DNA of 64,000 bases from Proteobacteria bacterium SG_bin4 (GTDB taxonomy: Bacteria; Pseudomonadota; Gammaproteobacteria; Burkholderiales; Nitrosomonadaceae): contig LWDH01000035.1 in NCBI GenBank assembly GCA_002083395.1, forward strand, positions 41,403-105,402, given 5' to 3'. Numbering within the stretch: the stretch's first letter is position 1; each line of letters begins with the position of its first letter. The notes beneath the pieces were generated by a model, which worked only from the letters and a program-made list of their open reading frames with translations, did no database searches and was not told where the DNA came from. Below, piece by piece: positions 21,961 to 45,741 of this stretch. A program made the translations under genes and the position numbers.

Positions 21961-22324
21961 ATGATATCGCTGAGGGCGAGGTTACGAAGCTACAATATTT
22001 TCATTCAGGTCGGAGTGCTTTTGGTTCAATGAAATAGCTGTTAGTTAAAAGCTGCAAAGAAATGTCGATACAGAAGTTAGTAAAATTGACCTGAAGTAAC
22101 GCTACGAACCATTATCTGTATTCATCATGGAGAAAATGAATTTGCCAATGGAAAGCAGCATGTTAACAGTATCGAATCTTTCTGAAGTTTTGCAGAGAGG
22201 TCTGGCAAAATCAATGATTTTCTATTTGTATCTGAAAGAAACTGAATTTCGTTTTAATTATTATCGCGATAATCTCGACTATGAAATTCTCAACAAAACC
22301 CTAATACAGATATTATTTAAGTGA
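21961..22324 (+). pseudogene. Decayed IS1595-family (ISXO2-like) transposase remnant
   Basis: The 22127-22324 ORF ends ...LQRGLAKSMIFYLYLKETEFRFNYYRDNLDYEIL. This matches the conserved C-terminal tail (..AKRRL.KF.G....F.LYLKE.EFRFN.R..NL) of ISXO2-like transposases. Upstream frames show frame-shifted fragments (EGEVTKLQYFHSGR, GRGYEATIF) reminiscent of the DDE region. No intact ORF and no terminal inverted repeats were seen. Confidence 0.5.
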
Positions 22325-22337
22325 TAAAAACAAGCAA

Positions 22338-23243
22338 ATGAATAGAACACTTTTTCCACCGATTGAGGAGTCAGAAGAACAAGAACTAATTACCTCAGTT
22401 TATGAATTTGTAAAAGTAATAACTAGCGATAAATTTTATGACGAAAAATCTTTAATTGCATTTCGTGGGCATGCAGATGAATCATTCAAATTAGAACCTA
22501 AAGTTTTGCGGAAAGAACATTATAAAAAAAACGAAGATAGGCTATTGCGTGATCTAATTGCTTCACATCCCCATGAATTTAATTATGATCGAACTATGTT
22601 TGATAAATTAGTCAGGATGCAACATGTTGGCCTCCCTACTCGCCTTCTTGACGTTACAACCAATCCTTTGGTTGCGCTTTGGTTTGCAGTCAGTGAGAAA
22701 AAAGAAACCGATGGGGCAGTGGTGGTTTTTTTTATCAATTCAAAAGTAAAGTGCTATTTCGACAGCGATAAAGTAAGTCTCTTATCAAATTTGGCAGCTC
22801 TTCCTTACGAGGATAAGGAGTGCATCAAAAATAAAATTCTTGATGACCGCCTTCAAACTACACAATCAATCACGAGGTTTTTGCATTTCATCAAAGACGA
22901 GAAGCCATACTTTGAATCTAAAATTGACTTTCTTGATTTGCTAAAGGTTTTATACGTTATCCCAAAAATGAGCAATAAGCGGATTCTTGCACAGTCAGGA
23001 GCTTTTCTTCTTTTTGGTATTGATAAGAAGGATATTTATTACAATATAGAGGAGACGCAAGATAATGGAAATCCAAATTCATCCTTGATCTCCACAAAAA
23101 GAATCAAACTCGATCATGGATATAAGCCACAAATGAAGAAAGATCTTGAGAAACTAGGAATTCATGCTGGAACACTTTTCCCAGATTTCGATAAGAGTGC
23201 TGAATACCTTTCAGATCGATATAACAGGGTTACTGATACTTAA
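22338..23243 (+). CDS. FRG domain-containing protein
   Basis: 301 aa. The eponymous motif AFRGHADESFKLEPKV is followed by MQHVGLPTRLLDVTTNPLVALWFAV. The gene is strongly AT-rich compared with its flanks. Confidence 0.85.
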   Translation: MNRTLFPPIEESEEQELITSVYEFVKVITSDKFYDEKSLIAFRGHADESFKLEPKVLRKEHYKKNEDRLLRDLIASHPHEFNYDRTMFDKLVRMQHVGLPTRLLDVTTNPLVALWFAVSEKKETDGAVVVFFINSKVKCYFDSDKVSLLSNLAALPYEDKECIKNKILDDRLQTTQSITRFLHFIKDEKPYFESKIDFLDLLKVLYVIPKMSNKRILAQSGAFLLFGIDKKDIYYNIEETQDNGNPNSSLISTKRIKLDHGYKPQMKKDLEKLGIHAGTLFPDFDKSAEYLSDRYNRVTDT

Positions 23244-23552
23244 AAATAGTCTGCTTATTTTATCTTCTTAGTTCTAATCTCAATGTTCTACGCCACAAAT
23301 ACTCAAGTCTGCGCAGACACGAACTTGTAGGTGTCGATTGGAGAGAGGAATTATCTACCAATTACTCCTGTGCATTCATGATCAACATGGAATGTCCGGA
23401 TAAGCCATTCAACTCGACACAATTAATCGAATGCAGATTGGCGTTTTCTATGTATCTGACTCGGGCAATTCTCTTAGTTTTGGTGTCGCCGAGTAGCATC
23501 ACTTTAAGTTTAATTTTAACGAGCAACAGGAGCAAGAGAACGCCCAAATATA

Positions 23553-25091
23553 CTACAACGTCTGCCGTTGAGTGAAGTCTTTTAAGCGGAATCCGAGCAG
23601 CCAGAGCGCGGCGAAATAACTGGCGGCACCGGCGATGACTACGCCGCTGAGTTGCGTGGCGCGGGATAATGCCGAGCCGCTCAGCCAGGCGGCGTCATTG
23701 CCGGCGGCGAACCACAGCACGATGCCCATGACCGCCAGCGCCAGCAGTATTTTGGCAAAGAAAACCAGCCAGCCGGGTTGCGGTTGGTAAATGGCTTGCT
23801 TACGCAGTTGGTAAAACAACAATCCTGCATTCAAGCAAGCGCCGAGTCCGATCGCCAGCGCCAGCCCGGCGTGCTGCAGCGGCGTGATGAAAATCAAGTT
23901 CATCAGTTGCGTGGCGATCAAGGTGATGACGGCGATTTTGACCGGTGTTTTGATGTTCTGGCGGGCATAGAATCCCGGCGCGAGCACTTTTACCAGGATG
24001 ATGCCAAGCAAGCCGACGCTGTACGCAACCAGGGCTTCGCGTGTCATCCAAACATCGTGTTCGGTGAAAGCGCCATGATGGAACAGGGTGGTGATCAGCG
24101 GTACCGACAACAAAGCGAGCGCGAGTGCGGCTGGGAGCGTCAGCAGCATGGTCATGCGCAAGCCCCAGTCGAGCAGCCGGGAATATTCATCGTTGCTGTT
24201 GGTGCTGTAATGCTTGGCCAGCGACGGCAGCAAAATGGTGCCGAGCGCGACGCCGAGCAGACCGGCGGGAAATTCCATCAGCCGGTCGGCGTAATACATC
24301 CAGGAAACGCTGCCGGTTACCAGCAACGAAGCGAATATGGTATTGATCAACAGGCTGAGCTGGCTGACCGATACGCCGAAAATCGCCGGTCCCATGAGTT
24401 TGAGCACGCGCCACGCGCCGGTATCCGGATTGCGGAACTGGATACGCGGCATTAATCTGAGTTTCAACAAAAAAGGGATTTGGAACGCCAGCTGTAAAAT
24501 GCCGCCGATAAAAACCGCCCAAGCCAGCGCTAGAACCGGCGGATCGATCAAGGGTGTCAACCAGAATGCGCAACCGATGAAGGATAAATTCAGCAGCGCC
24601 GGGGTGATGGCCGGTACATTGAATTTCCCGTAAGTATTGAGGATGCCGCCTGCCAACGCCACGAAAGAAATAAACAAAATATAGGGAAAGGTGATTTGCA
24701 GCAGTTGCACGGTTAAATCGAATTTTTCCGGATCGGCAGAGAATCCGGGCGCGCTGGCGTAGATGATGAACGGTGCCGCGATAATGCCGAGGGCTGTCAC
24801 CAGGAACAGCACGCCGCCGAGCAGCATTGTGATGTGATCGATCAAACTGCGGGTTTCTTCATGCGTGCGGGTGTTTTTATATTCGGCGAGGATCGGAACG
24901 AAAGCCTGCGAAAAAGCCCCTTCGGCGAACAGCCGCCGCAGCAGGTTGGGGATGCGAAACGCGACAAAAAAAGCATCGGTTGCCATTCCTGCACCAAAAA
25001 TCCGTGCGATCAGGATGTCGCGCACGAAACCGAGGATGCGTGACACGAAAGTCATACTGCTGACCGCGGCGAGGGCTTTAAGGAGATTCAA
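23553..25091 (-). CDS. murJ: Lipid II flippase MurJ (MviN)
   Basis: 512 aa. [35 protein letters not shown] is the canonical MurJ N-terminus. The protein is polytopic. TTG start. Confidence 0.95.
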
Positions 25092-26238: not shown

Positions 26239-26577
26239 ATGTCGAAAAAATCAGTTAAACCAGTTTCACTCGCGGTAAGTGCTGCATTGGTCACCAGTCT
26301 TGGTGCCGGTGATTTGTTGGCGGATAGCAGCGCCAATCCGTTTGCGATGAATGAATTATCCGGCGGTTACATGCAACTGGCCGATGCCAGCAGCGCCAAT
26401 AAACCGGCGCAAGAAAGCGGTAAAGAATCCAAACAAAATATGGAAGGTAAATGCGGCGAAGGCAAGTGTGGCGGCAAAACTGAGATGAAGCAAAACATGG
26501 AAGGCAAGTGCGGCGGTAAGAAGGCCGAACAAGAAGGTAAATGCGGCGAAGGCAAATGCGGTTCTTCTAAAAAGTAA
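26239..26577 (+). CDS. hvfA: HvfA-family exported RiPP precursor/metallophore protein with five EGKCG motifs
   Basis: 112 aa. It has a Sec-type signal peptide (MSKKSVKPVSLAVSAALVTSLGAGDLLA), a conserved NPFAMNELSGGYMQL block, then EGKCGEGKCGG, EGKCGG and EGKCGEGKCG (Cys72, 77, 91, 102, 107). GGAGA RBS. It lies immediately upstream of the DUF692 and DUF2063 genes. Confidence 0.8.
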   Translation: MSKKSVKPVSLAVSAALVTSLGAGDLLADSSANPFAMNELSGGYMQLADASSANKPAQESGKESKQNMEGKCGEGKCGGKTEMKQNMEGKCGGKKAEQEGKCGEGKCGSSKK

Positions 26578-26580
26578 CCA

Positions 26581-27447
26581 ATGCAACCCATGAGCAGCCG
26601 GTCATTTCCTGTTCATGGCGCGGGCCTGGGTCTGCGGCGTTCGATGCTGAGCTCGCTGACGGATCAGGCCACGCAATCCGTCGATTTCTGGGAAGTGGCT
26701 CCGGAAAACTGGATTGGTGTCGGTGGCCGGTACGGCCACCAATTTCGACAGCTGACCGAGCGATTTCCTTTTATCTGCCACGGACTTTCGTTGTCGATCG
26801 GCGGTCCGTCACCGCTTGACGAAGCTTTCTTGCACAAGCTCAAGCGTTTCCTGAAAGATCATCATATCCGCACTTACAGCGAGCATTTGAGTTATTGCAG
26901 CGATGACGGTCATTTATACGATTTGCTGCCGATCCCGTTTACCGAAGAAGCGGTTTTTTATGTAGCAAGCCGGATCCGGCGCGTTCAAGAAATCCTTGAA
27001 CAACGTATCGCAATCGAGAATGTTTCTTATTATGCGGCGCCTGGAAAGCAACTGGAGGAAGCCGACTTCATCAATGCGGTATTGCAGGAAGCCGATTGCG
27101 ATTTGCTGTTGGATGTGAATAATATTTATGTCAACAGCGTCAACCATGACTACGATGCCGAGGCATTTCTGCTGCGCTTGCCGGTGGAACGTATCCGCTA
27201 TCTTCATGTGGCCGGACACTATCAGGAAGCAGCCGATCTGATCGTCGATACGCACGGCGCCGATGTCATCGATCCGGTATGGCAATTGCTCGATAAAACC
27301 TATCAGCGTTTGGGTGTTATTCCAACCTTGCTTGAGCGCGATTTCAATATTCCACCGATCGCTGATTTGTTGCGTGAAGTGGCAACGATCCATTCGCTTC
27401 AAACCAAATGGCGCAATGAAACGGGCGGTTACTTACAACACGCCTGA
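26581..27447 (+). CDS. hvfB: MNIO (DUF692/MbnB-family) RiPP maturase, HvfB-like
   Basis: 288 aa. Carries [44 protein letters not shown] and LHVAGH, the TIM-barrel multinuclear non-heme iron enzyme pattern of DUF692. It starts 3 nt after the precursor stop. Confidence 0.9.
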
Positions 27448-28201
27448 CCGGCCGGATTTTGTGCGCCAGCAATATGCCTTTGCAGCGCACATTCGTGATC
27501 CGGAAAAAAATCCGCATCCACAAGCCGTCGAGGCACGGCGCATGAAGCTCTACTGCGAGCTGTTTTATAACAACGTGGAGGATATAATTGCCAATACCTT
27601 TCCGGTATTGCGGAAGATTTTACCGGATAATCATTGGCATGCATTAATCCGGGATTATTTCGCCCATCATGTGTCGCGAACTCCTTTGTTTCCGGAGATA
27701 CCTCGGGAGTTTCTGAAATACCTCGAGTCTGAGCGGAAAAACAGCGCTGACGATCCGCCTTTCCTGTTCGAGTTGGCGCATTATGAATGGGTGGAGCTGG
27801 CGCTTGCTATTTTTGATGAAAGCCTGATCGAGGCTGAAGCCGATGCTGCTGGCGATTTACTGGACGGAATCCCGGCAGTTTCGCCGTTAGCGTGGTTACT
27901 TTGTTACTCGTTTCCTGTGCATCGGATAACTGCGGACTTTCAGCCCGATAGGGCGGGCGCATTAAAGACGAATCTGATCATTTACCGGGATCGGGAATTT
28001 GATGTGCAGTTTATTGAAATCAATAAAATAACAGCGCGTTTACTGCATTTGATCGGTGAAAATAAAATCAAGTCCGGGTTGATGCTGTTGCACCAAGTAG
28101 CCGCGGAAATGAATCATCCGCAACCCGAAACGGTTATTCAGGGCGGCATTCAAATTTTGAACGATCTCAGGAAGCTCGGGGTGGTTTATCGTTTGCCATA
28201 G
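27416..28201 (+). CDS. hvfC: DUF2063-family RiPP maturation partner, HvfC/MbnC-like
   Basis: About 261 aa from the ATG at 27416, overlapping the hvfB end by 32 nt. [17 protein letters not shown]...[29 protein letters not shown] is the typical DUF2063 N-domain. The ORF-track start at 27263 lies inside hvfB and was rejected. Confidence 0.85.
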
Positions 28202-30711: not shown

Positions 30712-32346
30712 TCAGCTAACATAGAAATTCCGCATCATACCCATATCCTCGTGTTCGAGATTGTGGCAATGGTAAAGAAAAAAGCCTTTGAAATCATTAA
30801 AAGGTTTGATTATCTCAATTTCTTCCCCCGGCATCACCAGAACGGTATCTTTCCAGCCGCTGTTGATAAAACCGTGTTTCACAGTTTCGTAGGCGCTATC
30901 CTGATGAGTTTGCATCCGCGAGAGGATTTGAAACTGTTGACCATGCAAATGGATGGGATGCGGCATCGACATCATCATTCCCATCCCCATGCCTCCACCG
31001 CGTCCACCGCGGCGCATGCCACCGCCCATTCCCCGATTATCATGAAATATCTTAATTCTTTGAATGGAATTAACCGGAATTTGCTCGGATTCCATGTAAT
31101 CGTACATATCAAATGTTCTGCCATTTAGCTGGAACGCCATGTGCCGCATGCCGATGGCGATTGGAACAACTCTGTCAGGGTGGGTGAGGTCCTGAGGCGT
31201 TAAACGCGGCATTGGGATAAGTGTTTCCGGTAACTTCGGTGAATCGCTGATCTGCTCGGCGATCTGGAATTTTGCGATGGTGATTGTTTCATCCTGGCCA
31301 AAGGGAGCACCCATCATGCCCATTCCATCGCCTCCCATGCCACGGCGCATCCCTCCTCGCATGCCGCCGCCTCCCATATGAGAACTGGAGTCGCCAAAAG
31401 CCAGGCTTTGCAATGTGATGTCAGAACCTGGTTTGCGGCCGCTGAAATCAATCCACAATTCTACGCGCTCAGCGGGGGCAAGCATCACATAGGGTAAGTT
31501 TTGCGGCTTTTCCAGTAAACCGCCGTCGGTTGCGATTGCAGTGATCGGGGTGCCGTCACTCCATGCGAGTTTATAAATCCGCGCATTTGATCCATTCAGG
31601 ATGCGCAAGCGATAGGCTCTGGTTTTTACCGGAATGGAATAGTCTTTCTGTCCGTTTGCGAGAATGACATCGCCATGAAACCCCCGCATTCTTTGGTGCA
31701 TGCCTAGTATGTAGCGAAGCTGATTACCGCTGGAGAAGCTGCGATCCTGAATAATCAGCGGGATATCGAATTCGCCGCTAGGCAGACCTAATTTCCGTTC
31801 TTTCTCATCGGAAACCGTGATAAGTCCCGCTAAGCCTTGATAAACTTGCGGCGCGGTTAGCTCGTGGGTATGCGAATGATACCAGTTGGTACCGGCTGGA
31901 TTGGTTACCTCGAATTCATATAAGTACTGTTCGTCCCGATGGATGGCATACATCGGATGTCCGTCCATCGGTTGGGGGACATGCATGCCGTGCCAGTGCG
32001 TAATGCATGGCTCCGGTAATTGATTGCTGAAATAGATTCGAACTTTCTGACCTTGCTCAAAATTGAGAATAGGACCTAAATAGCCTGGCAACTCTTTAAG
32101 CGTAGATGAAGGTCCTTTAAGCAGTTTGCCAGTGTATTTAAAAACATGCGTGAGCGGACCGGGTAATATGGAAACATCGGAAGTCTGCGCATTCAATGCG
32201 ATTTCTACATCGGCCTTGAATAAAGGATTGGGTGTCATGTTACTTCCCTGTCTTGTCGCACAACTCAATCCCGGGATTGTTGCGGCAAAAGTGCCTGCTG
32301 CTGCATATTGTAGGAATTGACGTCTTTTATAATTGATATTTGTCAT
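30712..32346 (-). CDS. TAT-exported multicopper oxidase (CueO/CopA-like) with two Met/Gly/Arg-rich inserts
   Basis: Twin-arginine signal YKRRQFLQYAAAG. Copper motifs HWHGMH, WYHSHTH, HPIHLHG and HCHNLEHEDMGMM. The ATG at 32346 with a GAAGAGGG RBS is preferred over 32364. Confidence 0.9.
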   Translation of the reverse strand: MTNINYKRRQFLQYAAAGTFAATIPGLSCATRQGSNMTPNPLFKADVEIALNAQTSDVSILPGPLTHVFKYTGKLLKGPSSTLKELPGYLGPILNFEQGQKVRIYFSNQLPEPCITHWHGMHVPQPMDGHPMYAIHRDEQYLYEFEVTNPAGTNWYHSHTHELTAPQVYQGLAGLITVSDEKERKLGLPSGEFDIPLIIQDRSFSSGNQLRYILGMHQRMRGFHGDVILANGQKDYSIPVKTRAYRLRILNGSNARIYKLAWSDGTPITAIATDGGLLEKPQNLPYVMLAPAERVELWIDFSGRKPGSDITLQSLAFGDSSSHMGGGGMRGGMRRGMGGDGMGMMGAPFGQDETITIAKFQIAEQISDSPKLPETLIPMPRLTPQDLTHPDRVVPIAIGMRHMAFQLNGRTFDMYDYMESEQIPVNSIQRIKIFHDNRGMGGGMRRGGRGGGMGMGMMMSMPHPIHLHGQQFQILSRMQTHQDSAYETVKHGFINSGWKDTVLVMPGEEIEIIKPFNDFKGFFLYHCHNLEHEDMGMMRNFYVS

Positions 32347-32528
32347 GATTAATCCCTCTTCCATCAGTGAGATAGCAGCGGTACGCGGTCAACAATTCAA
32401 CGCGTAATTTATCTGCGATACTGGGATTAGTGTATCAGTTCAAGCATGACAAGTAATGTACTTTATGCTTAAGTGATTGAGCGTAAGAAGTTTTGAGGCT
32501 CAGGATCAGGGTAACGGAAACCGATGCA

Positions 32529-34250
32529 TCAAGTGAGAAGCGCTAACAACATTTGCGGGGAAGAATTCGCTTGTGCCAGCACCGCAGTGGCAGCTTGCTG
32601 CATGATTTGTGTTTTTGTAAGTGAGGTTGTTTCAACTGCATAATCGGTATCTTGTATTCGTGATTTGCTGGCAGTTGCGGATTCCACGCTGGTTTGATTG
32701 TTGGTAATGACCGATTGCAAACGGTTCAATTGTGCGCCGATTTTCGATCGCTCTCCGTTAATGTGATTGAGAGCCAGATCTACTTTAAAAGTCGTAAAAC
32801 CGGCATTGTTGATCAAATCCAGATCTTGGATGCTGAGTGCGCCCGTGTTGACCGCTCCCATGCTGATATCCAGTGTATCGGCTTTATTTGCACCGACCTG
32901 CAGACGCTTGTTGTTTCCGACTGCTGCTGCTTCGATATCTTCCCAGATTTCATTGAATCCGCTAGTCGGATTGGTTCCGCCACGCGAACCGGTATCGATG
33001 ACAACGCTCTCGGCAGTTTTAACGGAGCCGCCATCGGCATTTGATCCGCCGACTGCTCCGGTATCACTGTCTGTAAGGTTCATACTTGAAATATAGGTCG
33101 CACCATTTGCGACAAAGTCTGCATTAAAAGCATCGGCATTTGCATATAAGCCGCCGGTAGCGGCGCTGATTGCGTCATTTAAGGTGGCGCTTTGATGCTG
33201 GTTCAAATAAACCATGACATCTCTGATACCCGAACCACCGTTATCTTTAATGACCTGATGCAGATAGCGGACTGCTGTATAAGCGGCGGAATAATCATCC
33301 GATGATCCTCCCCACGATGCGCCTGCCGAACCAAAAGTCGAAGCTCTAGCCATAACACCGCCAATACCGACGCTGCTTATCGAAGCTTGCAAGCGTTCAT
33401 CGGCGCCATGGATAAATTCGGCGGCACCTTCCAGAAACCAAGTTTGATCAACCGTTGGATTGAACATCGAGCCGATATTCATGCTGCGGTACATCACGGC
33501 GTGTACCATTTCATGCGCAATAATTCGATCGTTGTAAAATGGTGCATTACCACCGTTTGGCAGATTGGCCGGTGTAAAATCGCTCATATCAATCTGAAGT
33601 TTGACATCCGCTGCTTTACCAGTATAGGTGCCCGGTATCGAACCAACAACCCGGGCCGCAGTGCCACCGGCGCCGTCGGTGAATGTTGTCAATTCGATAT
33701 TCATGTCAGCGCCATCCGCCGAAATTCCGAAATACTGCTGTATCATATTTTCCGCTTCTTCCAGCCAGCCGTATTGTAGACCGTAGACGACAGCCAGCTG
33801 GTTAGAGTCTCCGAGAACGCTGCTTCCGGAAAAGTCAAAAATACTATCCCCGTTGAAGGTGCTGGTTGTCGAGACCTTTTCTAGTTCTTGAATTAACTGA
33901 TTGGTTTCTTCTTGAAGCGCTTTCTTGTCAGCAAGGCTATTGGTTGAATTCGCGGCTTGGATGGATAATTCACGGATACGTTGCAATGCGGAAGTCATGG
34001 AAGTCAATGCGCCATCAGCTGTTTGTAACATTGAAATGCCATCATTGGCATTTCTGGTAGCTTGATTCAAGCCACGTATCTGGGCGGTCATTCGTTCAGA
34101 AATTGCAAGACCGGCTGCATCGTCTCTGGCGCTATTAATACGCATACCGGATGATAGCCGCTCTAAGGAGCGACTCAAATCCGTGGTGGTTGCTGATAAA
34201 TACCGTGAGGTATTTAACGCACCCAAGTTGGTATTAATGGATAATGACAT
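32529..34250 (-). CDS. fliC: Flagellin with an enlarged central domain carrying an HExxH...E zinc-metallopeptidase signature
   Basis: 573 aa. Canonical flagellin N-terminus (MSLSINTNLGALNTSRYL...RLSSGMRINSARDDAAGLAISERM) and C-terminus (...VLAQANSSPQMLLALLT). The central region contains HEMVHAVMY (nt 33501-33515) followed by FLEGAAEF. Confidence 0.9.
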   Translation of the reverse strand: MSLSINTNLGALNTSRYLSATTTDLSRSLERLSSGMRINSARDDAAGLAISERMTAQIRGLNQATRNANDGISMLQTADGALTSMTSALQRIRELSIQAANSTNSLADKKALQEETNQLIQELEKVSTTSTFNGDSIFDFSGSSVLGDSNQLAVVYGLQYGWLEEAENMIQQYFGISADGADMNIELTTFTDGAGGTAARVVGSIPGTYTGKAADVKLQIDMSDFTPANLPNGGNAPFYNDRIIAHEMVHAVMYRSMNIGSMFNPTVDQTWFLEGAAEFIHGADERLQASISSVGIGGVMARASTFGSAGASWGGSSDDYSAAYTAVRYLHQVIKDNGGSGIRDVMVYLNQHQSATLNDAISAATGGLYANADAFNADFVANGATYISSMNLTDSDTGAVGGSNADGGSVKTAESVVIDTGSRGGTNPTSGFNEIWEDIEAAAVGNNKRLQVGANKADTLDISMGAVNTGALSIQDLDLINNAGFTTFKVDLALNHINGERSKIGAQLNRLQSVITNNQTSVESATASKSRIQDTDYAVETTSLTKTQIMQQAATAVLAQANSSPQMLLALLT

Positions 34251-34340
34251 TTCGTCTTAATGGCGACATAACAAGTATTGCTAATTAACGTTACGTTGTT
34301 TTGTTTTCTTTAGATTTGAGAGTTTCTCAATACACCGGCA

Positions 34341-34372
34341 TCGATCGGGCAGCAATGGTATGTCTTAAAATA
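34341..34372 (-). promoter_or_regulatory. Candidate sigma-28 (FliA) promoter of the flagellin gene
   Basis: The minus strand reads TAAG-N15-CCCGATCG about 90 nt upstream of the flagellin ATG. The consensus is TAAA-N15-GCCGATAA and the CCGAT core is present. Confidence 0.35.
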
Positions 34373-34436: not shown

Positions 34437-35804
34437 TTAATTACTCAAAAAATGAGTTATCAGAATGGAATAACCCAATCCCGCACTTGCACAAGCACCG
34501 ATGACCGTGACCAACCCAATTTTATGTTTGAACAAAGCATAAAATGCGATGCCGCCAATCACGGCTGAGAACCATTCAAATGGCCCGCCAAAGCCGTTTG
34601 GCCAGAGTACATGGTAAGCAAAAAAAACCGCCAAATTTACAATAACGCCGACCACGGCTGCGGTGATGCCTGTCAGCGGCGCGGTGAATTTGACATCGTG
34701 ACGGGTAGCCTCGACTGCAGGAGCGCCCAATAAGATAAAAAGGAATGAAGGCAAAAACGTAAAGAGCGTGGCAATCAATGCACCGGCAATGCCTGCTAGA
34801 TATAACAGATCGGCTCCAAAAAGCGCTTTGGTCCAGCCACCGACAAATCCCACAAAAGCAACGATCATGATGAGCGGACCAGGTGTGGTTTCACCCAAAG
34901 CCAATCCATCGATCATTTGCGTTGCGCTCAACCAAGCATAGTGCTCGACGCCTCCTTGATAGACGTAAGGTAACACTGCATAAGCACCGCCAAAAGTCAT
35001 TAGCGCAGCTTTTGTGAAAAACCAACCCATCTGTGTCAGCGTGCCGTTCCAGCCATATTGAACCGATAACAAAGCCATTACCGCGCACCAGATAGTGAGT
35101 CCGATCAGCGCAAAAGCAATAAAACGGCTCCATTTGAAACGAGCATGTTCCGGAAGCGGCGAATCATTATCAATGATCGCGGGGCCGTAGCGATGGCTTG
35201 AATCGATAGCGTGTTTGCCAGCTTGAAATTTGTCCGGCATGAAATGCGAGCCGATATAACCGATCAGGCCAGCCGATACCACGATGTAAGGAAAGGGAAA
35301 ATCGAAAACAAAGATCGCGATAAAAGCTAATATTGCGATAGCGCGCAATAGATTGTTCCTTAAAGCTTTGCTGCCGATACGGTAAGCTGCAAATAAGACA
35401 ATAGCGGTTACCGCTGGCTTGATGCCGTACAAAATTCCGGCAACTGCCGGAATTTCGCTGTAAATTAGGTAGATCCATGTCAGAACTATCAAAATAAGCA
35501 GCGACGGTAATACAAATAAGGTGCCGGCAACAATTCCACCCCAAGTGCCATGCATCAACCAGCCGATATAAATCGCCAGCTGCTGGGCCTCCGGGCCAGG
35601 TAGCACCATCGTATAATTCAATGCATGCATGAAGCGCTGTTCAGAAATCCAACGCCGTTGTTCGACCAGCTCTTGATGCATCAGGCTGATTTGGCCGGCT
35701 GGCCCGCCGAAACTAATGAAGCCAAGCTTAAGCCAGTATCGAAAAGCCTCCCAAAATGATACCGGCCCGGGTGGAGCGGGAGCATGCTCGGTTGTTTCTG
35801 ACAT
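34437..35804 (-). CDS. chrA: Chromate transporter ChrA (CHR family, two-domain long form)
   Basis: 455 aa. FWEAFRYWLKLGFISFGGPAGQISLMHQELVEQRRWISEQRF is the CHR signature. A second repeat contains FGGAYAVLPY. Confidence 0.9.
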   Translation of the reverse strand: MSETTEHAPAPPGPVSFWEAFRYWLKLGFISFGGPAGQISLMHQELVEQRRWISEQRFMHALNYTMVLPGPEAQQLAIYIGWLMHGTWGGIVAGTLFVLPSLLILIVLTWIYLIYSEIPAVAGILYGIKPAVTAIVLFAAYRIGSKALRNNLLRAIAILAFIAIFVFDFPFPYIVVSAGLIGYIGSHFMPDKFQAGKHAIDSSHRYGPAIIDNDSPLPEHARFKWSRFIAFALIGLTIWCAVMALLSVQYGWNGTLTQMGWFFTKAALMTFGGAYAVLPYVYQGGVEHYAWLSATQMIDGLALGETTPGPLIMIVAFVGFVGGWTKALFGADLLYLAGIAGALIATLFTFLPSFLFILLGAPAVEATRHDVKFTAPLTGITAAVVGVIVNLAVFFAYHVLWPNGFGGPFEWFSAVIGGIAFYALFKHKIGLVTVIGACASAGLGYSILITHFLSN

Positions 35805-35864: not shown

Positions 35865-36962
35865 TTAACGTTCAACAATCGTCCATTGCCGCTGGTCTTC
35901 AGAAGCTTTCTGCAAAACTGAATTTCTTTCTTCTTTGGGAAGTTTACTGATTTTTGTGACCGCATCGAAAAATTTATTCATGTCCTGGTCGTTCTGCGCA
36001 AGGATTGTCTGAAATGCCGGTACCAATTGAGAATAAATCGAAACCGTCGCCAGTAATGCATTATTCAAAGGCTGAGAGAACCATGAATCATAGAGACTAA
36101 GCTCTGGATCACCGGTTTTCAAGTCAGCGAATTCTGTGCGCAATTCATCAAATATCCGTGCCTTATGAGCACGCTTCTCAACTTCGCTGAGATCCGATTG
36201 GAATAAATCCTGCAAGTGCTTGCGATATTTGAAAACCAGATCGGTGAAGATGGTTTCCCGTTCTCGCCGGGCGCTTAATGCCGATTGTTGCAATACAGTG
36301 CCGTTATGAGCGAACCAGCGCTTAATGCCTTCTTGTTCGACCGCTGTCGCAAAAGATTCGTTAAAGACGGTATCGCCGGGCACATAGACAACTTGATGCG
36401 CCAGCTCATGAAAAATCAACCGCGCGAGATTTATTTCAGAGTAGCTTATGAAAGTATTGAGCACCGGATCGCTGAACCAGCCCAGCGTGGAATAGGCGCG
36501 AACTCCGCCGACGTGAACATCATAGCCTTCATTTCTGAGTTCTTCAGCATAACGTTCCGCCTTAGCTTGAGAAAAAAAGCCACGGTAATTAACACAACCC
36601 ACTTTTAGAAAGCACCATTCTTTGAGCTGAAGGGATAATTCCGGGGATGCGAAAACATTCCAGACGACAAAGGGGCGTTCTAAATTCGCATAACTGGTGT
36701 AGCTCCGGTTATCCGGCAATTTCAATTCGCGGCTCGCAAATTGACGCAATTGAACGATTTTGGTCAGCGAATTTTTTAAATTCTGATCGGTATCCGGATT
36801 CTCGATAATGGTACTGATCGGTTGCGCTCGACGCAGAACTTCCAGATGTCCGTCGATCGCTTGCGCATAATAAGGAAGATTCGCGCATGCACTGAGCCAA
36901 GTAACGGAAGTCAGAGTCATGACAAATCTGAAAATCGTGAAGGATCGGGATACCGCGCTCAT
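35865..36962 (-). CDS. Predicted zinc aminopeptidase lipoprotein (DUF2265 family)
   Basis: 365 aa. Lipobox WLSAC and HExxH motif (FHELAHQ). The overall pattern matches the putative-aminopeptidase family. Confidence 0.65.
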   Translation of the reverse strand: MSAVSRSFTIFRFVMTLTSVTWLSACANLPYYAQAIDGHLEVLRRAQPISTIIENPDTDQNLKNSLTKIVQLRQFASRELKLPDNRSYTSYANLERPFVVWNVFASPELSLQLKEWCFLKVGCVNYRGFFSQAKAERYAEELRNEGYDVHVGGVRAYSTLGWFSDPVLNTFISYSEINLARLIFHELAHQVVYVPGDTVFNESFATAVEQEGIKRWFAHNGTVLQQSALSARRERETIFTDLVFKYRKHLQDLFQSDLSEVEKRAHKARIFDELRTEFADLKTGDPELSLYDSWFSQPLNNALLATVSIYSQLVPAFQTILAQNDQDMNKFFDAVTKISKLPKEERNSVLQKASEDQRQWTIVER

Positions 36963-39976: not shown

Positions 39977-41395
39977 ATGCAAACTTATCTACTTAAGTAC
40001 CTGCTTCCAAGCTTAATCGTCATAATCGCATCAAATATCACTTTAGCGCAACCGATGGCTCCTCTTCCTTTAGGAGCGGATTCATTAAGACAGCCCGAGC
40101 CGTCATCACCCGCTGTGCGCGAAATGGCGCCAGCCATGGTGCCGTTCAAAAGTGAATTACCTAAGTCGGATGTGTCGTTGCCGGCGGGTGAAGCGCAAGA
40201 ACCGGCTGTACTGTATACCATAGAGGAAATACAACGCATCGGGTTAGAAGCGAACGGTCTTGTCCAAGCCGCTCGTTCGCAAATTAATATGGCGAAAGCT
40301 GGTGTAGTAGCAGCTTCCGCATTCCTCAATCCCGAAGTTACGGTAACGGCCGGACCTGATAGCAATCGCTACTCCTTGGCTATTACCGGACCTACATCGA
40401 TGCAGCGCTCTGTAACCGTTAATCAGCCGATTGAGAATCCTTTCATGCGTAGCGCTCGCATTAATGCATCGGAAGCCATTGTTGATGCCAGCCGCGCCAG
40501 CTTTGATCAAGTACGCGCCGATTTGGCAGCACAATTGCGTGTCCGCGCTTACGAATTGCTGTTGCGCCAAGAACAAGCCACCATTGAACAAGGTATTTAT
40601 GATTTATTAGAAACTCTGCGTAACCGCATTGCTGCCAATGTTGAAAGAGGTGAAGTCGCACGATTTGAATTAATTCGTGCCGACACAGAATTGCAGAGTG
40701 CAGCTAACCGCGCTCAAGCAGCACGCCTGACGGTGCAGCGTGCAAGAGTTTTGCTATTGCAATTGTTGGCGGGCGCAATTCCAGGCAATTTTCAAATTAG
40801 AAATTCTTTGAAAGACCCTATTCAGTTGCCCTCGCTGGAAGAATTGCGCGAACAAGTACCTAAAATCAATCCCGATGTCATGCGCCTGCAAGCAGAACAG
40901 GAACGAGCCAATCATCGAATCAGTCAAGAAAAAGCTTCTGTATTGCCACAAATCAGTGTGTTGTACACCAATTATCAGGATGCGCAATTCACATCCAATA
41001 TTGCCGGTGCGAGTGTTCGAATTCCGATCTGGTACCGTCGCCGCGGTGAAATCGATACTGCCATTCATGATTCTGCACGTATCCGGGAAACGCTCGAATT
41101 CCGCCGCTACGAAATCAGCCAATTATTTGAGGCAGCATGGCAAGCCTTGGAAATTGCGCAACGGCGAGTGGACATATTTGAAGGCGGTTTGATCAAAGAA
41201 GCAGAAAATGTCGTGCAAGTCGCCCAGACTGCTTATCGATTTGGTGAACGTGGTTTAATCGAGTTTCTCGATTCGCAACGCATTTTCCGCGGCATCATAA
41301 GCGATTCCATGCTGGCACGTTTTGAACTGCAATCGGCAGCCGCTGAAATTGATCGTCTGCGCGCACATTATCCCAAGGAGTTAATTCCAGAATGA
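39977..41395 (+). CDS. TolC-family outer-membrane efflux protein (CzcC/CusC-like)
   Basis: 472 aa. Signal peptide and two-repeat OEP architecture. It overlaps the next gene by 4 nt (ATGA). Confidence 0.85.
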   Translation: MQTYLLKYLLPSLIVIIASNITLAQPMAPLPLGADSLRQPEPSSPAVREMAPAMVPFKSELPKSDVSLPAGEAQEPAVLYTIEEIQRIGLEANGLVQAARSQINMAKAGVVAASAFLNPEVTVTAGPDSNRYSLAITGPTSMQRSVTVNQPIENPFMRSARINASEAIVDASRASFDQVRADLAAQLRVRAYELLLRQEQATIEQGIYDLLETLRNRIAANVERGEVARFELIRADTELQSAANRAQAARLTVQRARVLLLQLLAGAIPGNFQIRNSLKDPIQLPSLEELREQVPKINPDVMRLQAEQERANHRISQEKASVLPQISVLYTNYQDAQFTSNIAGASVRIPIWYRRRGEIDTAIHDSARIRETLEFRRYEISQLFEAAWQALEIAQRRVDIFEGGLIKEAENVVQVAQTAYRFGERGLIEFLDSQRIFRGIISDSMLARFELQSAAAEIDRLRAHYPKELIPE

Positions 41396-42546
41396 ATGCC
41401 AAGTTACTATTAATCGGCCTTACGGCTGTTACTGTTTTATTGTCAACGGGTTGTGGAAGTAACGATTCGAACGACGAGAAAAGTACGCAATCATCTGAAG
41501 AACGGGATTTTAACCATATTGTCGCGCGGCCTGAGGTACTACCTCGGCTGGAATTGGGGCATCCATTTTTGGTTGATTTGGCCGACAAAATTCAAGTGCC
41601 AAGCCGGGTGACGGTCGATGAAGAAAGAACCGCGCATATCGGATCCTATATTACCGGACGAGTCACCGATATGTTTGTCATTCTGGGCGACTACGTCAAG
41701 CCGGGGCAACCGCTGGCACGGGTTACCAGCCCTGATCTGACAAATTCACAATTAGCGTATTTGCGTGCCTTATCACGGGAAGTTGTGACCTCCAAAGCCT
41801 ATGAACGTGCAAGGCATTTGCTTGCTGCTGATGCGATTCCGGTGGCCGAAGTCGAGCGCCGGCAATCGGAATTAGAAATCGCGCAAGCAGAATTGGCTGC
41901 AGCAACCGACCAATTGCGATTGTTCGGTTTGGGAGATGCAGAATTAAAAACGCTGAATAAAAAAAGAAAAGTTTTACCGTGGCTGGATATTAAGGCAACC
42001 CGGGAAGGTTATGTGATTGCTCGTAATGTATTGGTCGGTCAGGTGGTACAACCGTCCGATCCGTTGTTTCAAATAGCCGACTTATCGCATGTCTGGGTGG
42101 TCGGAGATGTTCCCGAACAAATCGCGCGCGATGTCGAATTGGATCAACATGTCGAAATCCAGGTGCCCGCATTAAATCAGCAACTGGACGGCATCATCAT
42201 CTTTGTTTCCGATACGGTTAACCGGCTAACACGTACGGTCATGACGCGCGTGATGGTGGAAAATCCGGAACGTAAACTGAAACCGGATATGATGGCCAAC
42301 ATGCACATTACCGATTCGGACCATAAAGTGCTCGTGGTGCCCGAATCTGCAGTCGTGCGTGAATTAAATCAGGATTATGTGTTTGTCGCATTGACGGATA
42401 ACGAATTTCAACGCGTGCCGGTTGAATTGGCCAAAGAAGTGGCGAATCTACGGCCAATAGTGAATGGATTGACCATCGAACAACGCATTGTCACTTCCGG
42501 TGCTTTTCATTTGGATAGCGAGCGCAAGCTTGCCGAATTGGAGTAA
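41392..42546 (+). CDS. RND efflux periplasmic adaptor (membrane fusion protein, CzcB/CusB-like)
   Basis: 384 aa. Lipobox LSTGC. HlyD-like barrel-sandwich and beta-barrel pattern. Confidence 0.85.
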   Translation: MNAKLLLIGLTAVTVLLSTGCGSNDSNDEKSTQSSEERDFNHIVARPEVLPRLELGHPFLVDLADKIQVPSRVTVDEERTAHIGSYITGRVTDMFVILGDYVKPGQPLARVTSPDLTNSQLAYLRALSREVVTSKAYERARHLLAADAIPVAEVERRQSELEIAQAELAAATDQLRLFGLGDAELKTLNKKRKVLPWLDIKATREGYVIARNVLVGQVVQPSDPLFQIADLSHVWVVGDVPEQIARDVELDQHVEIQVPALNQQLDGIIIFVSDTVNRLTRTVMTRVMVENPERKLKPDMMANMHITDSDHKVLVVPESAVVRELNQDYVFVALTDNEFQRVPVELAKEVANLRPIVNGLTIEQRIVTSGAFHLDSERKLAELE

Positions 42547-42552
42547 CTCGGG

Positions 42553-45500
42553 ATGAAAGCTATCGTTAGTGCCATGCTAAGACAGCGCTTGATCGTGCTG
42601 ATTATGGGTTTAATCCTATGCGCTGCCGGTGTCGGCGCAATCAAAGTTCTCTCAGTCGATGCATTTCCCGATGTCACCAACATTCAGGTACAAGTGGCTA
42701 CAGTCGCCATTGGCCGCAGCCCCGAAGAAATGGAAAGATTGGTGACGGTACCGGTCGAGATCGCGATGACCGGCTTGCCGGGTCTGGTTGAAATGCGTTC
42801 CATGAATAAGAGTGGATTGTCACTGATCACATTGGTTTTTACCGACCAAACCGACGTATTCTTTGCACGGCAATTGGTGATGGAACGCATCATCGACGTG
42901 ACACCGCGGTTGATACCCGGCATTACCCCGGTTCTCGGTCCGGTTTCAACCGGCCTGGGTGAAGTGTATCAATATACGATTGATCACCCGGATGACGGAA
43001 AACGCCAGCTCACCGTCGAGGAACTGATGGAGCGGCGCACCGTGCAGGATTGGGTGGTGCGTCCGATGCTGCGCTCGATTCGCGGTGTCGCGGAAGTCAA
43101 TTCAATGGGTGGACATGTCAAAGAATATCAAGTCTACGTTGATCCAAACAAATTGCGGCATTACGATTTAACCTTGACCGATGTGGATCGCGCCTTAGCC
43201 AACAATAACGCCAATGCCAGCGGCAACATTTTGGCATTACAGTACGAACAATATCTGATCCGTGGTGTCGGCTTGATCGCTACATTGGATGATATCCGCA
43301 ATATTATTCTGCGCGAAATGGACGGCGTGCCGGTTTACGTGCGCGATGTCGCACATGTTACCTTCGGCGGCGAAGTGCGTCAGGGGGCGAGCATTAAAAA
43401 CGGTGACACCGAAGCGGTGGCCGGTATCGTGATGATGTTGCGCGGCGGCAATGCGAAGGAAATTGTCGGGCGCATTAAGGAAAAAGTAAATGAAGTGAAT
43501 GAAAAAGGGATGTTGCCGAATGGCTTGCAAATCGTCCCTTTTTATGACCGTACCGATCTGGTCGATAGTGCATTGGGGACGGTGCAAAGCACACTGACAG
43601 AATCCCTGATTCTGGTAATCGTGGTGTTGTCGATTTTTCTGGGTACTGTGCGTACCAGCATCGTCGTGTGTTTTACGCTCATTATTACACCGCTGGTTAC
43701 TTTCCTGGTGATGAATTATTACGGCCTGCCGGCTAATCTGATGTCGTTGGGTGGCTTGACGATTGCTTTGGGCATGATGGTCGATCCGACTGTGGTGGTA
43801 GTCGAGAACATATACCAGCGCTTAGGCGAGGCGAAAGACAGCGGAAAATCGAAATTCGATGTTATCGTCGATGCGACCGCCGAGGTCGGTACGCCGGTTA
43901 TCTTCGGTTTGATCGTAACGGTGCTGGTTTTCTTGCCGCTGATGACGCTGGAAGGCATGGAAGGCAAAACTTTCAGTCCACTGGCCGTCACGATTTCGAT
44001 TTCACTGTTTATTGCACTGATCGTATCGCTATTGTTATCGCCAGTGCTGAGTGACTATTTAATCAAAGGCGGCAGTGAACAAGACACCAAAATCGTTGCG
44101 ACGATGAAAAACGCTTATTTGTGGTTTTTCGATCTGGCGTATAACAATCAGAAAAAAACCATGATCATTGCCATCAGCTCGTTAGCGGTTGCGATCGCAT
44201 TGTTTCCGTTGCTCGGTAAATCATTCATTCCGATCATGAAAGAAGGCGCGATTACGCCGGTGATTATACGTGCGCCATCGATTTCTCTGGACGAAGCGAT
44301 CAAAATCGAAACCGAGGCGATGAAATTGATTGCTGCGGTCCCCGGTGTTAAATCGGTGGTTTCCAAATTAGGCCGGGGCGATACCCCTGCCGATCCGGCA
44401 TCGCAAAACGAATCCGATCCGATCGCCGATTTGGATTTGGAGGGGTCGGGCCGTACTCAAGCCGAGATCGAGGAAGATATTCGTAAAGCATTATCGGTAC
44501 TGCCGGGTGCCAATATTGTGCTTTCGCAACCGATTGCGCAGCGTGTCGATGAAATGTTGACCGGTGTGCGTTCACAAGTCGCGATCAAGATTTTTGGAGA
44601 CGACCTGGAACAACTGCGCAAACTTTCCGAGCAAGTCGCGCGTATTGTTAAATCGACGCCGGGGGCGCGGGATATCCGTATCGAACGCTTGTCCGGCCAG
44701 CAGGAATTGACAGTTAATATTGATCGCCGTGCAATTGCCCGTCACGGTCTGAATGTGTCTGATGTCAATGAGATGATCGCTACGGCGGTGGGCGGTAAGT
44801 TTGTATCGCAAGTTTTTGAAGGCGAGCGGCGTTTTACTTTGTTGTTACGTTTTCCTGAAGAATTCCGGCACGATGTGGAAGCTATCAAAGAGCTATTGCT
44901 AAGACCTGCGATCCGAACGCCAAATGGCGCAGGATCTGGAAGTATGCTGATACCGCTGAGCGCGGTAGCAGATATACAAGTTGTCGATGGTCCGGCGATC
45001 ATTTCGCGTGAATTTGCAAGGCGCAGGGTGGTTATTGGTGTGAATGTGCATGGCCGCGATTTGGGCGGGTTTGTTGCCGAACTGCAAGAACGTACTGCAA
45101 AGGAAATTAGATTACCATCCGGCTATTATTTTGTTTGGGGTGGTCAGTTTGAAAACATGGAACGCGCGATGGCGAAACTGAGCATTATCGTACCGATTAC
45201 GCTCGCCGCGATTTTCTTCATGCTGTTCACCTTATTCAATTCAGTCAAAATGGCGGTGCTGATTTATCTGGTATTGCCGTTCGCATCGGTCGGTGGTGTC
45301 GTGGGGCTTTTCCTTACCGGGCAATACTTGTCGGTACCTGCATCGGTCGGCTTTATCGCGGTATGGGGAACTTCCATCTTGAATGGTGTTGTATTGATTT
45401 CGTTTCTGCGCGAATTGCGTCAGAAAGGATTAAACGTAAGAGATGCGGCCCGGCAAGCCTGTTCTCAGCGTTTCCGTCCGGTCATGATGACCGCTGCGAC

Positions 45501-45741
45501 TACCGTGCTGGGACTGGCGCCTTTCCTTGCCGCAACGGGATTGGGTTCCGAAATTCAAAAACCGCTCGCTGTGGTGGTTATTTTCGGATTGACGACAGCG
45601 ACGATGATGACGATGGTGGTGATGCCGATGATTTATCGCTGGTTTGACGATATACCGGATAAAAAGCTACCTGAACCCGATAACCAGCCTGAGCTTTTAC
45701 CTTTGGCTGATGAAGGACAAAATTCTGTCAAGAACTCCTGA
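42553..45741 (+). CDS. Heavy-metal efflux RND pump, CusA/CzcA family
   Basis: 1062 aa with the 12-TM RND layout. TM4 carries GMMVDPTVVVVEN (D..EN proton relay). The size and N-terminus are typical of HME-RND. The metal specificity cannot be read from the sequence. Confidence 0.95.
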   Translation: MKAIVSAMLRQRLIVLIMGLILCAAGVGAIKVLSVDAFPDVTNIQVQVATVAIGRSPEEMERLVTVPVEIAMTGLPGLVEMRSMNKSGLSLITLVFTDQTDVFFARQLVMERIIDVTPRLIPGITPVLGPVSTGLGEVYQYTIDHPDDGKRQLTVEELMERRTVQDWVVRPMLRSIRGVAEVNSMGGHVKEYQVYVDPNKLRHYDLTLTDVDRALANNNANASGNILALQYEQYLIRGVGLIATLDDIRNIILREMDGVPVYVRDVAHVTFGGEVRQGASIKNGDTEAVAGIVMMLRGGNAKEIVGRIKEKVNEVNEKGMLPNGLQIVPFYDRTDLVDSALGTVQSTLTESLILVIVVLSIFLGTVRTSIVVCFTLIITPLVTFLVMNYYGLPANLMSLGGLTIALGMMVDPTVVVVENIYQRLGEAKDSGKSKFDVIVDATAEVGTPVIFGLIVTVLVFLPLMTLEGMEGKTFSPLAVTISISLFIALIVSLLLSPVLSDYLIKGGSEQDTKIVATMKNAYLWFFDLAYNNQKKTMIIAISSLAVAIALFPLLGKSFIPIMKEGAITPVIIRAPSISLDEAIKIETEAMKLIAAVPGVKSVVSKLGRGDTPADPASQNESDPIADLDLEGSGRTQAEIEEDIRKALSVLPGANIVLSQPIAQRVDEMLTGVRSQVAIKIFGDDLEQLRKLSEQVARIVKSTPGARDIRIERLSGQQELTVNIDRRAIARHGLNVSDVNEMIATAVGGKFVSQVFEGERRFTLLLRFPEEFRHDVEAIKELLLRPAIRTPNGAGSGSMLIPLSAVADIQVVDGPAIISREFARRRVVIGVNVHGRDLGGFVAELQERTAKEIRLPSGYYFVWGGQFENMERAMAKLSIIVPITLAAIFFMLFTLFNSVKMAVLIYLVLPFASVGGVVGLFLTGQYLSVPASVGFIAVWGTSILNGVVLISFLRELRQKGLNVRDAARQACSQRFRPVMMTAATTVLGLAPFLAATGLGSEIQKPLAVVVIFGLTTATMMTMVVMPMIYRWFDDIPDKKLPEPDNQPELLPLADEGQNSVKNS

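Follow-up and report, generated by a model that had tools for sequence, protein, structure and literature searches.

Can the flagellum of an ammonia-oxidizing bacterium also be a protease? The question is raised by a single gene on contig LWDH01000035.1 of Proteobacteria bacterium SG_bin4 (assembly GCA_002083395.1), of which positions 41,403 to 105,402 of the forward strand were analysed; this stretch of 64,000 nucleotides is referred to here as the window, and is numbered from its first letter. The gene occupies 32529..34250 on the minus strand, with 573 codons followed by a stop codon at 32529-32531, as given in the list of open reading frames (ORFs). A preliminary description, prepared from the sequence, proposed that it encodes a flagellin with a peptidase signature in its surface-exposed middle. 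Our analysis points the same way: very probably, the gene is a flagellinolysin—a proteolytic flagellin of MEROPS family M101—of Nitrosomonas, whose deduced function is that of a Zn2+ endopeptidase displayed on the flagellar filament.

The flagellin character of the 573-residue protein is evident at its ends. The N-terminal D0/D1 region (residues 5-139; 33834..34238, minus strand) matches Pfam Flagellin_N with an E-value of 8.9e-42, the C-terminal D1/D0 region (residues 489-572; 32535..32786, minus strand) matches Flagellin_C at 3.4e-19, and flagellins are matched at both ends in a search against PDB sequences, which bears out the canonical termini ascribed to the protein at the outset. In a full-length AlphaFold2 model, the N-terminal region folds into long helices spanning residues 9-34, 41-100 and 106-129, and the C-terminal region into a helix at 483-572. 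The positions given in the preliminary description are likewise all correct: the range it singled out, 33201-33803, corresponds to residues 150-350 of the ORF; the motif HEMVH falls exactly at residues 246-250 (33501-33515); and FLEGAAEFIHG, which it placed about 24 residues further on, occupies residues 272-282, such that E274 lies 24 residues past H250.

Between the termini lies a central, surface-exposed domain (residues 141-480; 32811..33830, minus strand), which profile matches and structural modelling together identify as a zinc metallopeptidase of M101, or M9-like, type. Given the amino-acid composition of the window, a bare HExxH is expected by chance about 0.016 times in 573 residues and about 0.55 times across all window ORFs, and a second one, HELAH, is present in an aminopeptidase-like gene at 35865-36962; the motif by itself is thus uninformative, and the case rests on profile evidence. 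That evidence is led by the NCBIfam equivalog model NF033876, "flagellinolysin", which matches residues 112-504 across its entire length (model positions 1-384 of 384) and scores 425.2 bits where the cutoff is 205, with an E-value of 3.1e-127. Pfam Peptidase_M9 (PF01752) also matches, at residues 245-332, with 24.5 bits and an E-value of 1.9e-5, falling below its gathering score of 26 and taking in only positions 163-250 of the 289 in the model. Peptidase M9 proper, the bacterial collagenases, was accordingly rejected as an assignment, the subgathering score and partial coverage marking the domain as a relative of M9 and not a member. Among PDB sequences, the isolated central region matches collagenases only (7esi and 9l5o; E-values 0.0015-0.003), and in the alignment to the Vibrio collagenase 7esi HEMVH lies opposite HEYVH and FLEGAAEF opposite WSEGIAEY. 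Apart from the two flagellin ends and the peptidase segment, a Pfam scan of the 573-residue protein detected no domain. Its profile matches place the central domain in the flagellinolysin family (MEROPS M101; NCBIfam NF033876).

The residues expected of a working active site can be mapped with some precision. By comparison with FliA(H) of Clostridium haemolyticum, from conservation, and from the 7esi alignment, H246 and H250 of HEMVH would be two zinc ligands and E247 the general base. Within FLEGAAEFIHG (33405..33437, minus strand), conservation, spacing and the EGIAEY of 7esi suggest E274 as the third zinc ligand and A277 as the hydrophobic "basement" residue. Upstream, D221 (33588..33590, minus strand), which is invariant and aligns to the Glu of the "LEGD" motif in Vibrio collagenase, is a candidate acidic residue of a Ca2+ site. 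Across an alignment of 58 homologs that are 53-96% identical, D221, D224, H246, E247, H250, E274, G275, A277 and E278 are all invariant, and of the two aspartates upstream of the HExxH either D221 or D224 may be the Ca2+ ligand. In FliA(H), the corresponding roles are assigned to H233, H237 and E262 as zinc ligands, E234 as general base, A265 as basement and Asp206 at the Ca2+ site (PMC5595980). The spacing is closely similar: H250 to E274 is 24 residues, compared with 25 from H237 to E262, with an Ala at +3 in both proteins. E274 and A277 are mapped onto E262 and A265 by this spacing and through the alignment to M9, rather than by aligning the protein with FliA(H) itself. D221 sits 25 residues before H246, the equivalent distance being 27 for Asp206 in FliA(H) and 25 for Glu430 in ColH, and may be the counterpart of both. 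Read against these enzymes, the predicted catalytic residues of the Nitrosomonas flagellinolysin are all intact.

Structure prediction offers a further view of the same domain. AlphaFold2 modelled the full-length protein with a predicted local distance difference test (pLDDT) score of 84.8, and residues 141-480 alone with a pLDDT of 86.2 and a predicted template modelling (TM) score, pTM, of 0.84. Both models contain a three-stranded sheet followed by the HExxH helix (residues 240-254) and then the helix carrying E274 and A277 (270-281). With the domain model as query, the top three Foldseek matches in the PDB are all zinc metallopeptidases: the ColH peptidase domain 4ar1 (probability 0.94, E-value 0.017, TM-score 0.37), lugdulysin of family M30, and ColG 7zbv. 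ColH was also the template used by the discoverers of flagellinolysins (PMC5595980). A search with the full-length model was set aside, having returned flagellin filaments only, because the D0/D1 helices dominate. The models therefore support, with Foldseek statistics that are weak but agree with the sequence evidence, a thermolysin-like gluzincin fold related to M9. In essence, NF033876, Peptidase_M9, the 7esi alignment and the structural match to ColH all favor the peptidase reading of the flagellin middle. The profile and structure searches that the preliminary description had named beforehand as able to refute that reading found a peptidase fold—with a collagenase peptidase domain as the best PDB match—and the reading stands.

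The best database matches to the window protein are Nitrosomonas proteins, at 91-96% identity. Among them is P0005, already named "flagellinolysin [Nitrosomonas sp.]" by NCBI (MBX3617375.1 / WP_292917621.1). Within species-representative genomes, the closest homologs are those of N. marina, at 76% in both Nm71 and Nm22, and of Nitrosomonas metagenome-assembled genomes (MAGs; 70-78%), followed by those of Spongiibacter, Zhongshania, Steroidobacteraceae, Hylemonella (51-52%), Acidovorax, Massilia and others. For 20.4 kb, the window runs colinear with the Nitrosomonas sp. MAG GCA_019635155.1, and the nucleotide identity there is approximately 79%. Judged by these comparisons, its organism is a Nitrosomonas, and because identity is no higher than that over the colinear segment, it is a species distinct from that of the MAG. 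The variable regions of flagellins are usually fast-evolving. Compared with the 91%-identical ortholog in locus L082, the ratio of nonsynonymous to synonymous substitution rates (dN/dS) is 0.03 in the central domain and 0.05 in the D0/D1 termini, at a dS of about 1.2 that approaches saturation. The middle of the flagellinolysin is constrained at least as much as the filament core, and the protein as a whole is under strong purifying selection.

A natural point of reference is the ordinary flagellin of the genus. Loci L071 (7418-9124) and L056 (10001-11698) encode flagellins of about 566-569 residues with a conserved, non-protease variable region found in Nitrosomonas and Nitrosomonadales, and the copy at L045 (1847-2884) is cut short at 346 residues. 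Many homologs of the L071 flagellin carry PF07196 (Flagellin_IN), for which a Pfam scan of the window protein gave no match. The ordinary flagellins are without an HExxH and resemble the window protein at the termini only. An ordinary structural Nitrosomonas flagellin of about 569 residues and Flagellin_IN type was thus considered and rejected as an identity for the window protein, which has no PF07196 and a nonhomologous central region. A search with the L071 flagellin gave matches from N. ureae and N. supralitoralis as well as from many MAGs, with no named N. marina entry among them, and no such flagellin could be placed in a genome that also carries a flagellinolysin. The accession number of the flagellinolysin MBX3617375 is some 11,000 away from MBX3628607 and some 22,000 away from MBX3639182; as the gaps exceed the number of proteins expected in one Nitrosomonas genome, the three probably belong to separate MAGs. 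The genus thus has two very different long flagellin types.

How might such a protein operate? By analogy with the enzymes of C. haemolyticum and H. gracilis, the monomer would leave the cell by way of the flagellar type III apparatus, and its D0/D1 helices would polymerize it into the filament, probably interspersed with structural flagellin encoded elsewhere. The filament of C. haemolyticum is made mostly of structural flagellin, with the protease flagellin as a minor component (PMC5595980, PMC7643111). The filament surface would then display a Ca2+-stabilized, Zn2+-dependent gluzincin endopeptidase, in whose active site H246, H250 and E274 would hold the zinc and E247 would activate water. 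Experiments have demonstrated both activity and incorporation into filaments for the C. haemolyticum protein, and activity for that of H. gracilis (PMC5595980, PMC7643111). Transcription of the window gene is probably monocistronic, and probably from a sigma-28-type late-flagellar promoter, despite a location outside any flagellar cluster.

That promoter deserves a closer look, as the preliminary description had already noted a sigma-28-like element ahead of the gene. Scored against the 12 positions of the consensus TAAA-N15-GCCGATAA, the candidate sigma-28 (FliA) promoter is TAAA-N16-AACGTTAA, 34 nt before the ATG (34285..34312, minus strand), which matches at 9/12. Matches of 9/12 or better number 280 in the window, so the element taken alone is at chance level. 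Comparable elements occur 31-39 nt before the ATG in loci L081 (TAAA-N15-ATCGTTAA) and L001 (TAAA-N15-TCCGTTGA), in the same stretch of the upstream alignment, and a match of at least 10/12 lies within 200 nt upstream in 15 of 26 orthologous loci, as against roughly 3% of random 200-nt windows. The idea of a sigma-28-like promoter thus draws support from these similar elements and from enrichment across the family, but not from the window's own match; late-flagellar transcription is plausible for the family and tentative for the window gene. A second element, TAAG-N14-CCCGATCG at 34367..34342, 91 nt upstream, may be the one originally meant; it scores 8/12 only and has no obvious counterpart in L081, leaving TAAA-N16-AACGTTAA as the better candidate. 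At the other end of the gene, the 164-nt spacer at 32365-32528 (minus strand) has a greater folding stability than its shuffled controls (z = -2.7) but contains no hairpin followed by a U-run, and read-through into the downstream multicopper oxidase gene is possible.

The surroundings of the gene are not flagellar. Pfam scans of 52 of the 53 nonoverlapping window ORFs of at least 80 residues detected no FliD, FliS, FlaG or other flagellar family besides the flagellinolysin itself, in agreement with the initial picture of a solitary gene; the one ORF outside these scans, 42553-45741, is by synteny a resistance-nodulation-division (RND) transporter. Downstream on the same strand lies a multicopper oxidase with an RRQFLQ motif resembling a twin-arginine translocation signal (30712-32364, minus strand). 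Immediately upstream is a ChrA chromate transporter (34437-35804, minus strand), followed by a lipoprotein of the PF10023 "putative aminopeptidase" family (35865-36962, minus strand; E-value 2e-123) with a lipobox-like LSAC and the HELAH mentioned above. An efflux set of OEP, MFP and RND components of CzcB/CusB type is encoded at 39977-45741 on the plus strand, and a RoxA-like cytochrome gene is also among the neighbors. The flagellinolysin gene is therefore set among metal-related genes, namely the multicopper oxidase, ChrA and the efflux set.

This arrangement is conserved only in the close MAG. Of 17 neighboring window proteins, none was matched in the 10 kb to either side of the flagellinolysin gene of N. 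marina, which in strain Nm22 (L002, 4073-17757) is flanked by genes for a GGDEF-EAL response regulator and for threonine synthase, and in a third relative, a metagenome contig, the flagellinolysin gene comes directly after alanine dehydrogenase. Three unrelated neighborhoods mean that no conserved operon partner can be claimed: the gene has no conserved partners, and within Nitrosomonas either the gene itself was relocated or the DNA around it was rearranged. A Peptidase_Mx gene was also observed about 5 kb from the flagellinolysin gene of N. marina Nm22.

Several explanations compete with a filament-borne protease, and they fare differently. That the protein is an ordinary flagellin in whose variable region an HExxH arose by chance gains something from the 0.55 such motifs expected among window ORFs, but it is already refuted by the profile searches: the NF033876 match (3e-127), the homology to M9 and the zinc metallopeptidases at the head of the Foldseek matches are all at odds with it, as are the ordinary Nitrosomonas flagellins (L071, L045 and that of N. 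ureae), which differ centrally. Slightly better placed, and still very unlikely, is an outer domain without catalytic activity, which would act as an adhesin or a structural sheath and merely keep the ancestral motif. The full-length H. gracilis flagellinolysin, being only minorly active in vitro (PMC7643111), is in keeping with such a role; against it, every catalytic and metal-binding position is invariant in the 58 homologs, dN/dS across the peptidase core is as low as 0.03, and both family members tested are active, with E234A abolishing activity. Of the alternatives, the one with most to commend it, albeit unlikely, is a secreted protease for which the flagellin termini serve only as a type III export signal, the protein being released as a monomer or shedding its central domain. 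The authors of PMC7643111 raised this possibility themselves, and it would sit comfortably with a gene that lies outside flagellar clusters in all three Nitrosomonas neighborhoods examined, with no gene for a FliS chaperone or FliD cap nearby. Yet the complete D0/D1 is conserved (dN/dS 0.05) beyond what an export signal needs, and the C. haemolyticum protein was located on filaments by immunogold labeling and mass spectrometry (PMC5595980).

A proteolytic filament thus remains our favored account, and a number of points weigh against it. The Foldseek match to ColH is statistically weak (E-value 0.017, TM-score about 0.37). Co-assembly has to be assumed, since the window encodes neither a structural flagellin nor fliS or fliD, and the candidate sigma-28 element matches at only 9/12. 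On the coding strand, there is no canonical intrinsic terminator between the flagellinolysin stop and the multicopper oxidase. The modest in vitro activity of the full-length H. gracilis enzyme counts here too, and none of the eight papers found to mention flagellinolysin describes experiments with an ammonia oxidizer.

More ambitious readings can be entertained. One is that the proteolytic flagellum serves nitrogen or energy acquisition; another, separate from it, is that the flagellinolysin is the only flagellin of its genome and builds an all-protease filament. We consider either improbable, their basis being gene proximity in two close relatives and nothing more. The aminopeptidase gene of the PF10023 family is two genes upstream of the flagellinolysin gene, a position kept in L081-L083, and to call its product a partner in extracellular proteolysis is speculation. 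Were nitrogen acquisition the role, the filament endopeptidase, possibly together with this aminopeptidase, would release peptides and, ultimately, ammonium for a chemolithoautotroph. For flagellinolysins generally, published proposals comprise peptide generation that augments sensing, attack on the flagella of competitors, and service as a secreted protease; to these we would add biofilm remodelling as a guess.

Some other features of the window may be recorded here. Two encoded proteins of cyclic di-GMP signaling, a GGDEF-EAL protein of 890 residues (1287-3959, minus strand) and a 7TMR-DISM-GGDEF protein of 583 residues (48106-49857, plus strand), may bear on a switch between motility and biofilm. 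At 26239-28201 (plus strand), a 112-residue ORF with a signal-peptide-like N terminus and five EGKCG repeats is followed by an enzyme of the MbnB/TglH/ChrH family (PF05114) and then a DUF2063/HvfC protein, the same three genes being found in L081-L083; we take this set to resemble an operon for a metal-binding, ribosomally synthesized and post-translationally modified peptide of HvfA/bufferin type. A 570-residue fusion of an N-terminal TIR_2 domain with an FGE-sulfatase (SUMF1-like) domain, an unusual combination, is encoded at 58184-59896 (plus strand). Lastly, positions 22001-24000 form a patch of low GC content (0.41, compared with about 0.49 nearby) that holds an FRG-domain ORF (22338-23243, plus strand) and may be a variable or mobile spot. 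Colinearity with L082 stops near 23554, where the compared L082 sequence ends, and in L081 a DUF772 transposase-like gene begins just past the shared MurJ gene.

How new is a flagellinolysin in Nitrosomonas? The family was described in 2017 from 86 sequences in 74 species (PMC5595980) and extended in 2020 to 265 sequences in 194 species, as MEROPS M101 (PMC7643111). Nitrosomonas is absent from the 2017 supplement (PMC5595980) and from the main text of both papers (PMC5595980, PMC7643111); its only appearance that we found in the two is in the 2020 supplement, where the ten sequences aligned in Supplementary Figure 8 include N. marina WP_090628462 (PMC7643111). The view that such a flagellin was unstudied in organisms of this kind is therefore not sustained as stated: the betaproteobacterial enzyme of H. 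gracilis has been characterized biochemically, the N. marina ortholog has been aligned (PMC7643111), and NCBI already names Nitrosomonas orthologs "flagellinolysin". The identification is correct but ordinary, the feature being already known. The real surprise came with the 2017 report of the family, the first enzymatic flagella; the window copy adds one more sequence from a genus in which orthologs are already annotated and have entered a published alignment. What interest remains is ecological, namely why an obligate ammonia-oxidizing autotroph keeps a protease flagellin under strong purifying selection.

The window protein can be set beside several known systems. The clostridial and Vibrio M9 collagenases (PDB 4ar1, 7zbv and 7esi) share the gluzincin active site, with HExxH and EGxAE in alignment, but at only about 12-13% identity, and the window peptidase domain is inserted into a flagellin. 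A second system is FliA(H) of C. haemolyticum (UniProt Q8RR94; Eckhard et al. 2017, PMC5595980), which has the same architecture of Flagellin_N, M9-like gluzincin and Flagellin_C and matches the same NCBIfam model. The two agree in the HExxH and in a Glu, the predicted third ligand, 24-25 residues past the second His with Ala at +3; at about 25-27 residues ahead of the first His, both have an acidic residue, which in the window protein is a candidate for the Ca2+ site. They differ in that the host of FliA(H) is a Gram-positive anaerobic pathogen and its gene lies inside a flagellar cluster, whereas the Nitrosomonas window gene lies among metal-homeostasis genes. HgrFlaMP of Hylemonella gracilis (Betaproteobacteria; PMC7643111) is of similar length, at 565 residues with its HExxH at 249-253, and its gene is likewise outside the flagellar cluster (PMC7643111); over its full length, the window protein shares 51-52% identity with flagellinolysins of Hylemonella sp. 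MAGs, in which HEMVH likewise lies at residue 246. HgrFlaMP comes from a heterotrophic freshwater member of the Comamonadaceae and its activity has been shown, while the window protein belongs to a chemolithoautotrophic ammonia oxidizer and is known from sequence. Closest of all are N. marina WP_090628462 (NmaFlaMP) and Nitrosomonas sp. MBX3617375.1: both proteins run to the same 573 residues, without indels, at 76% and 91% identity, respectively, and the N. marina gene occupies a neighborhood unrelated to that of the window gene.

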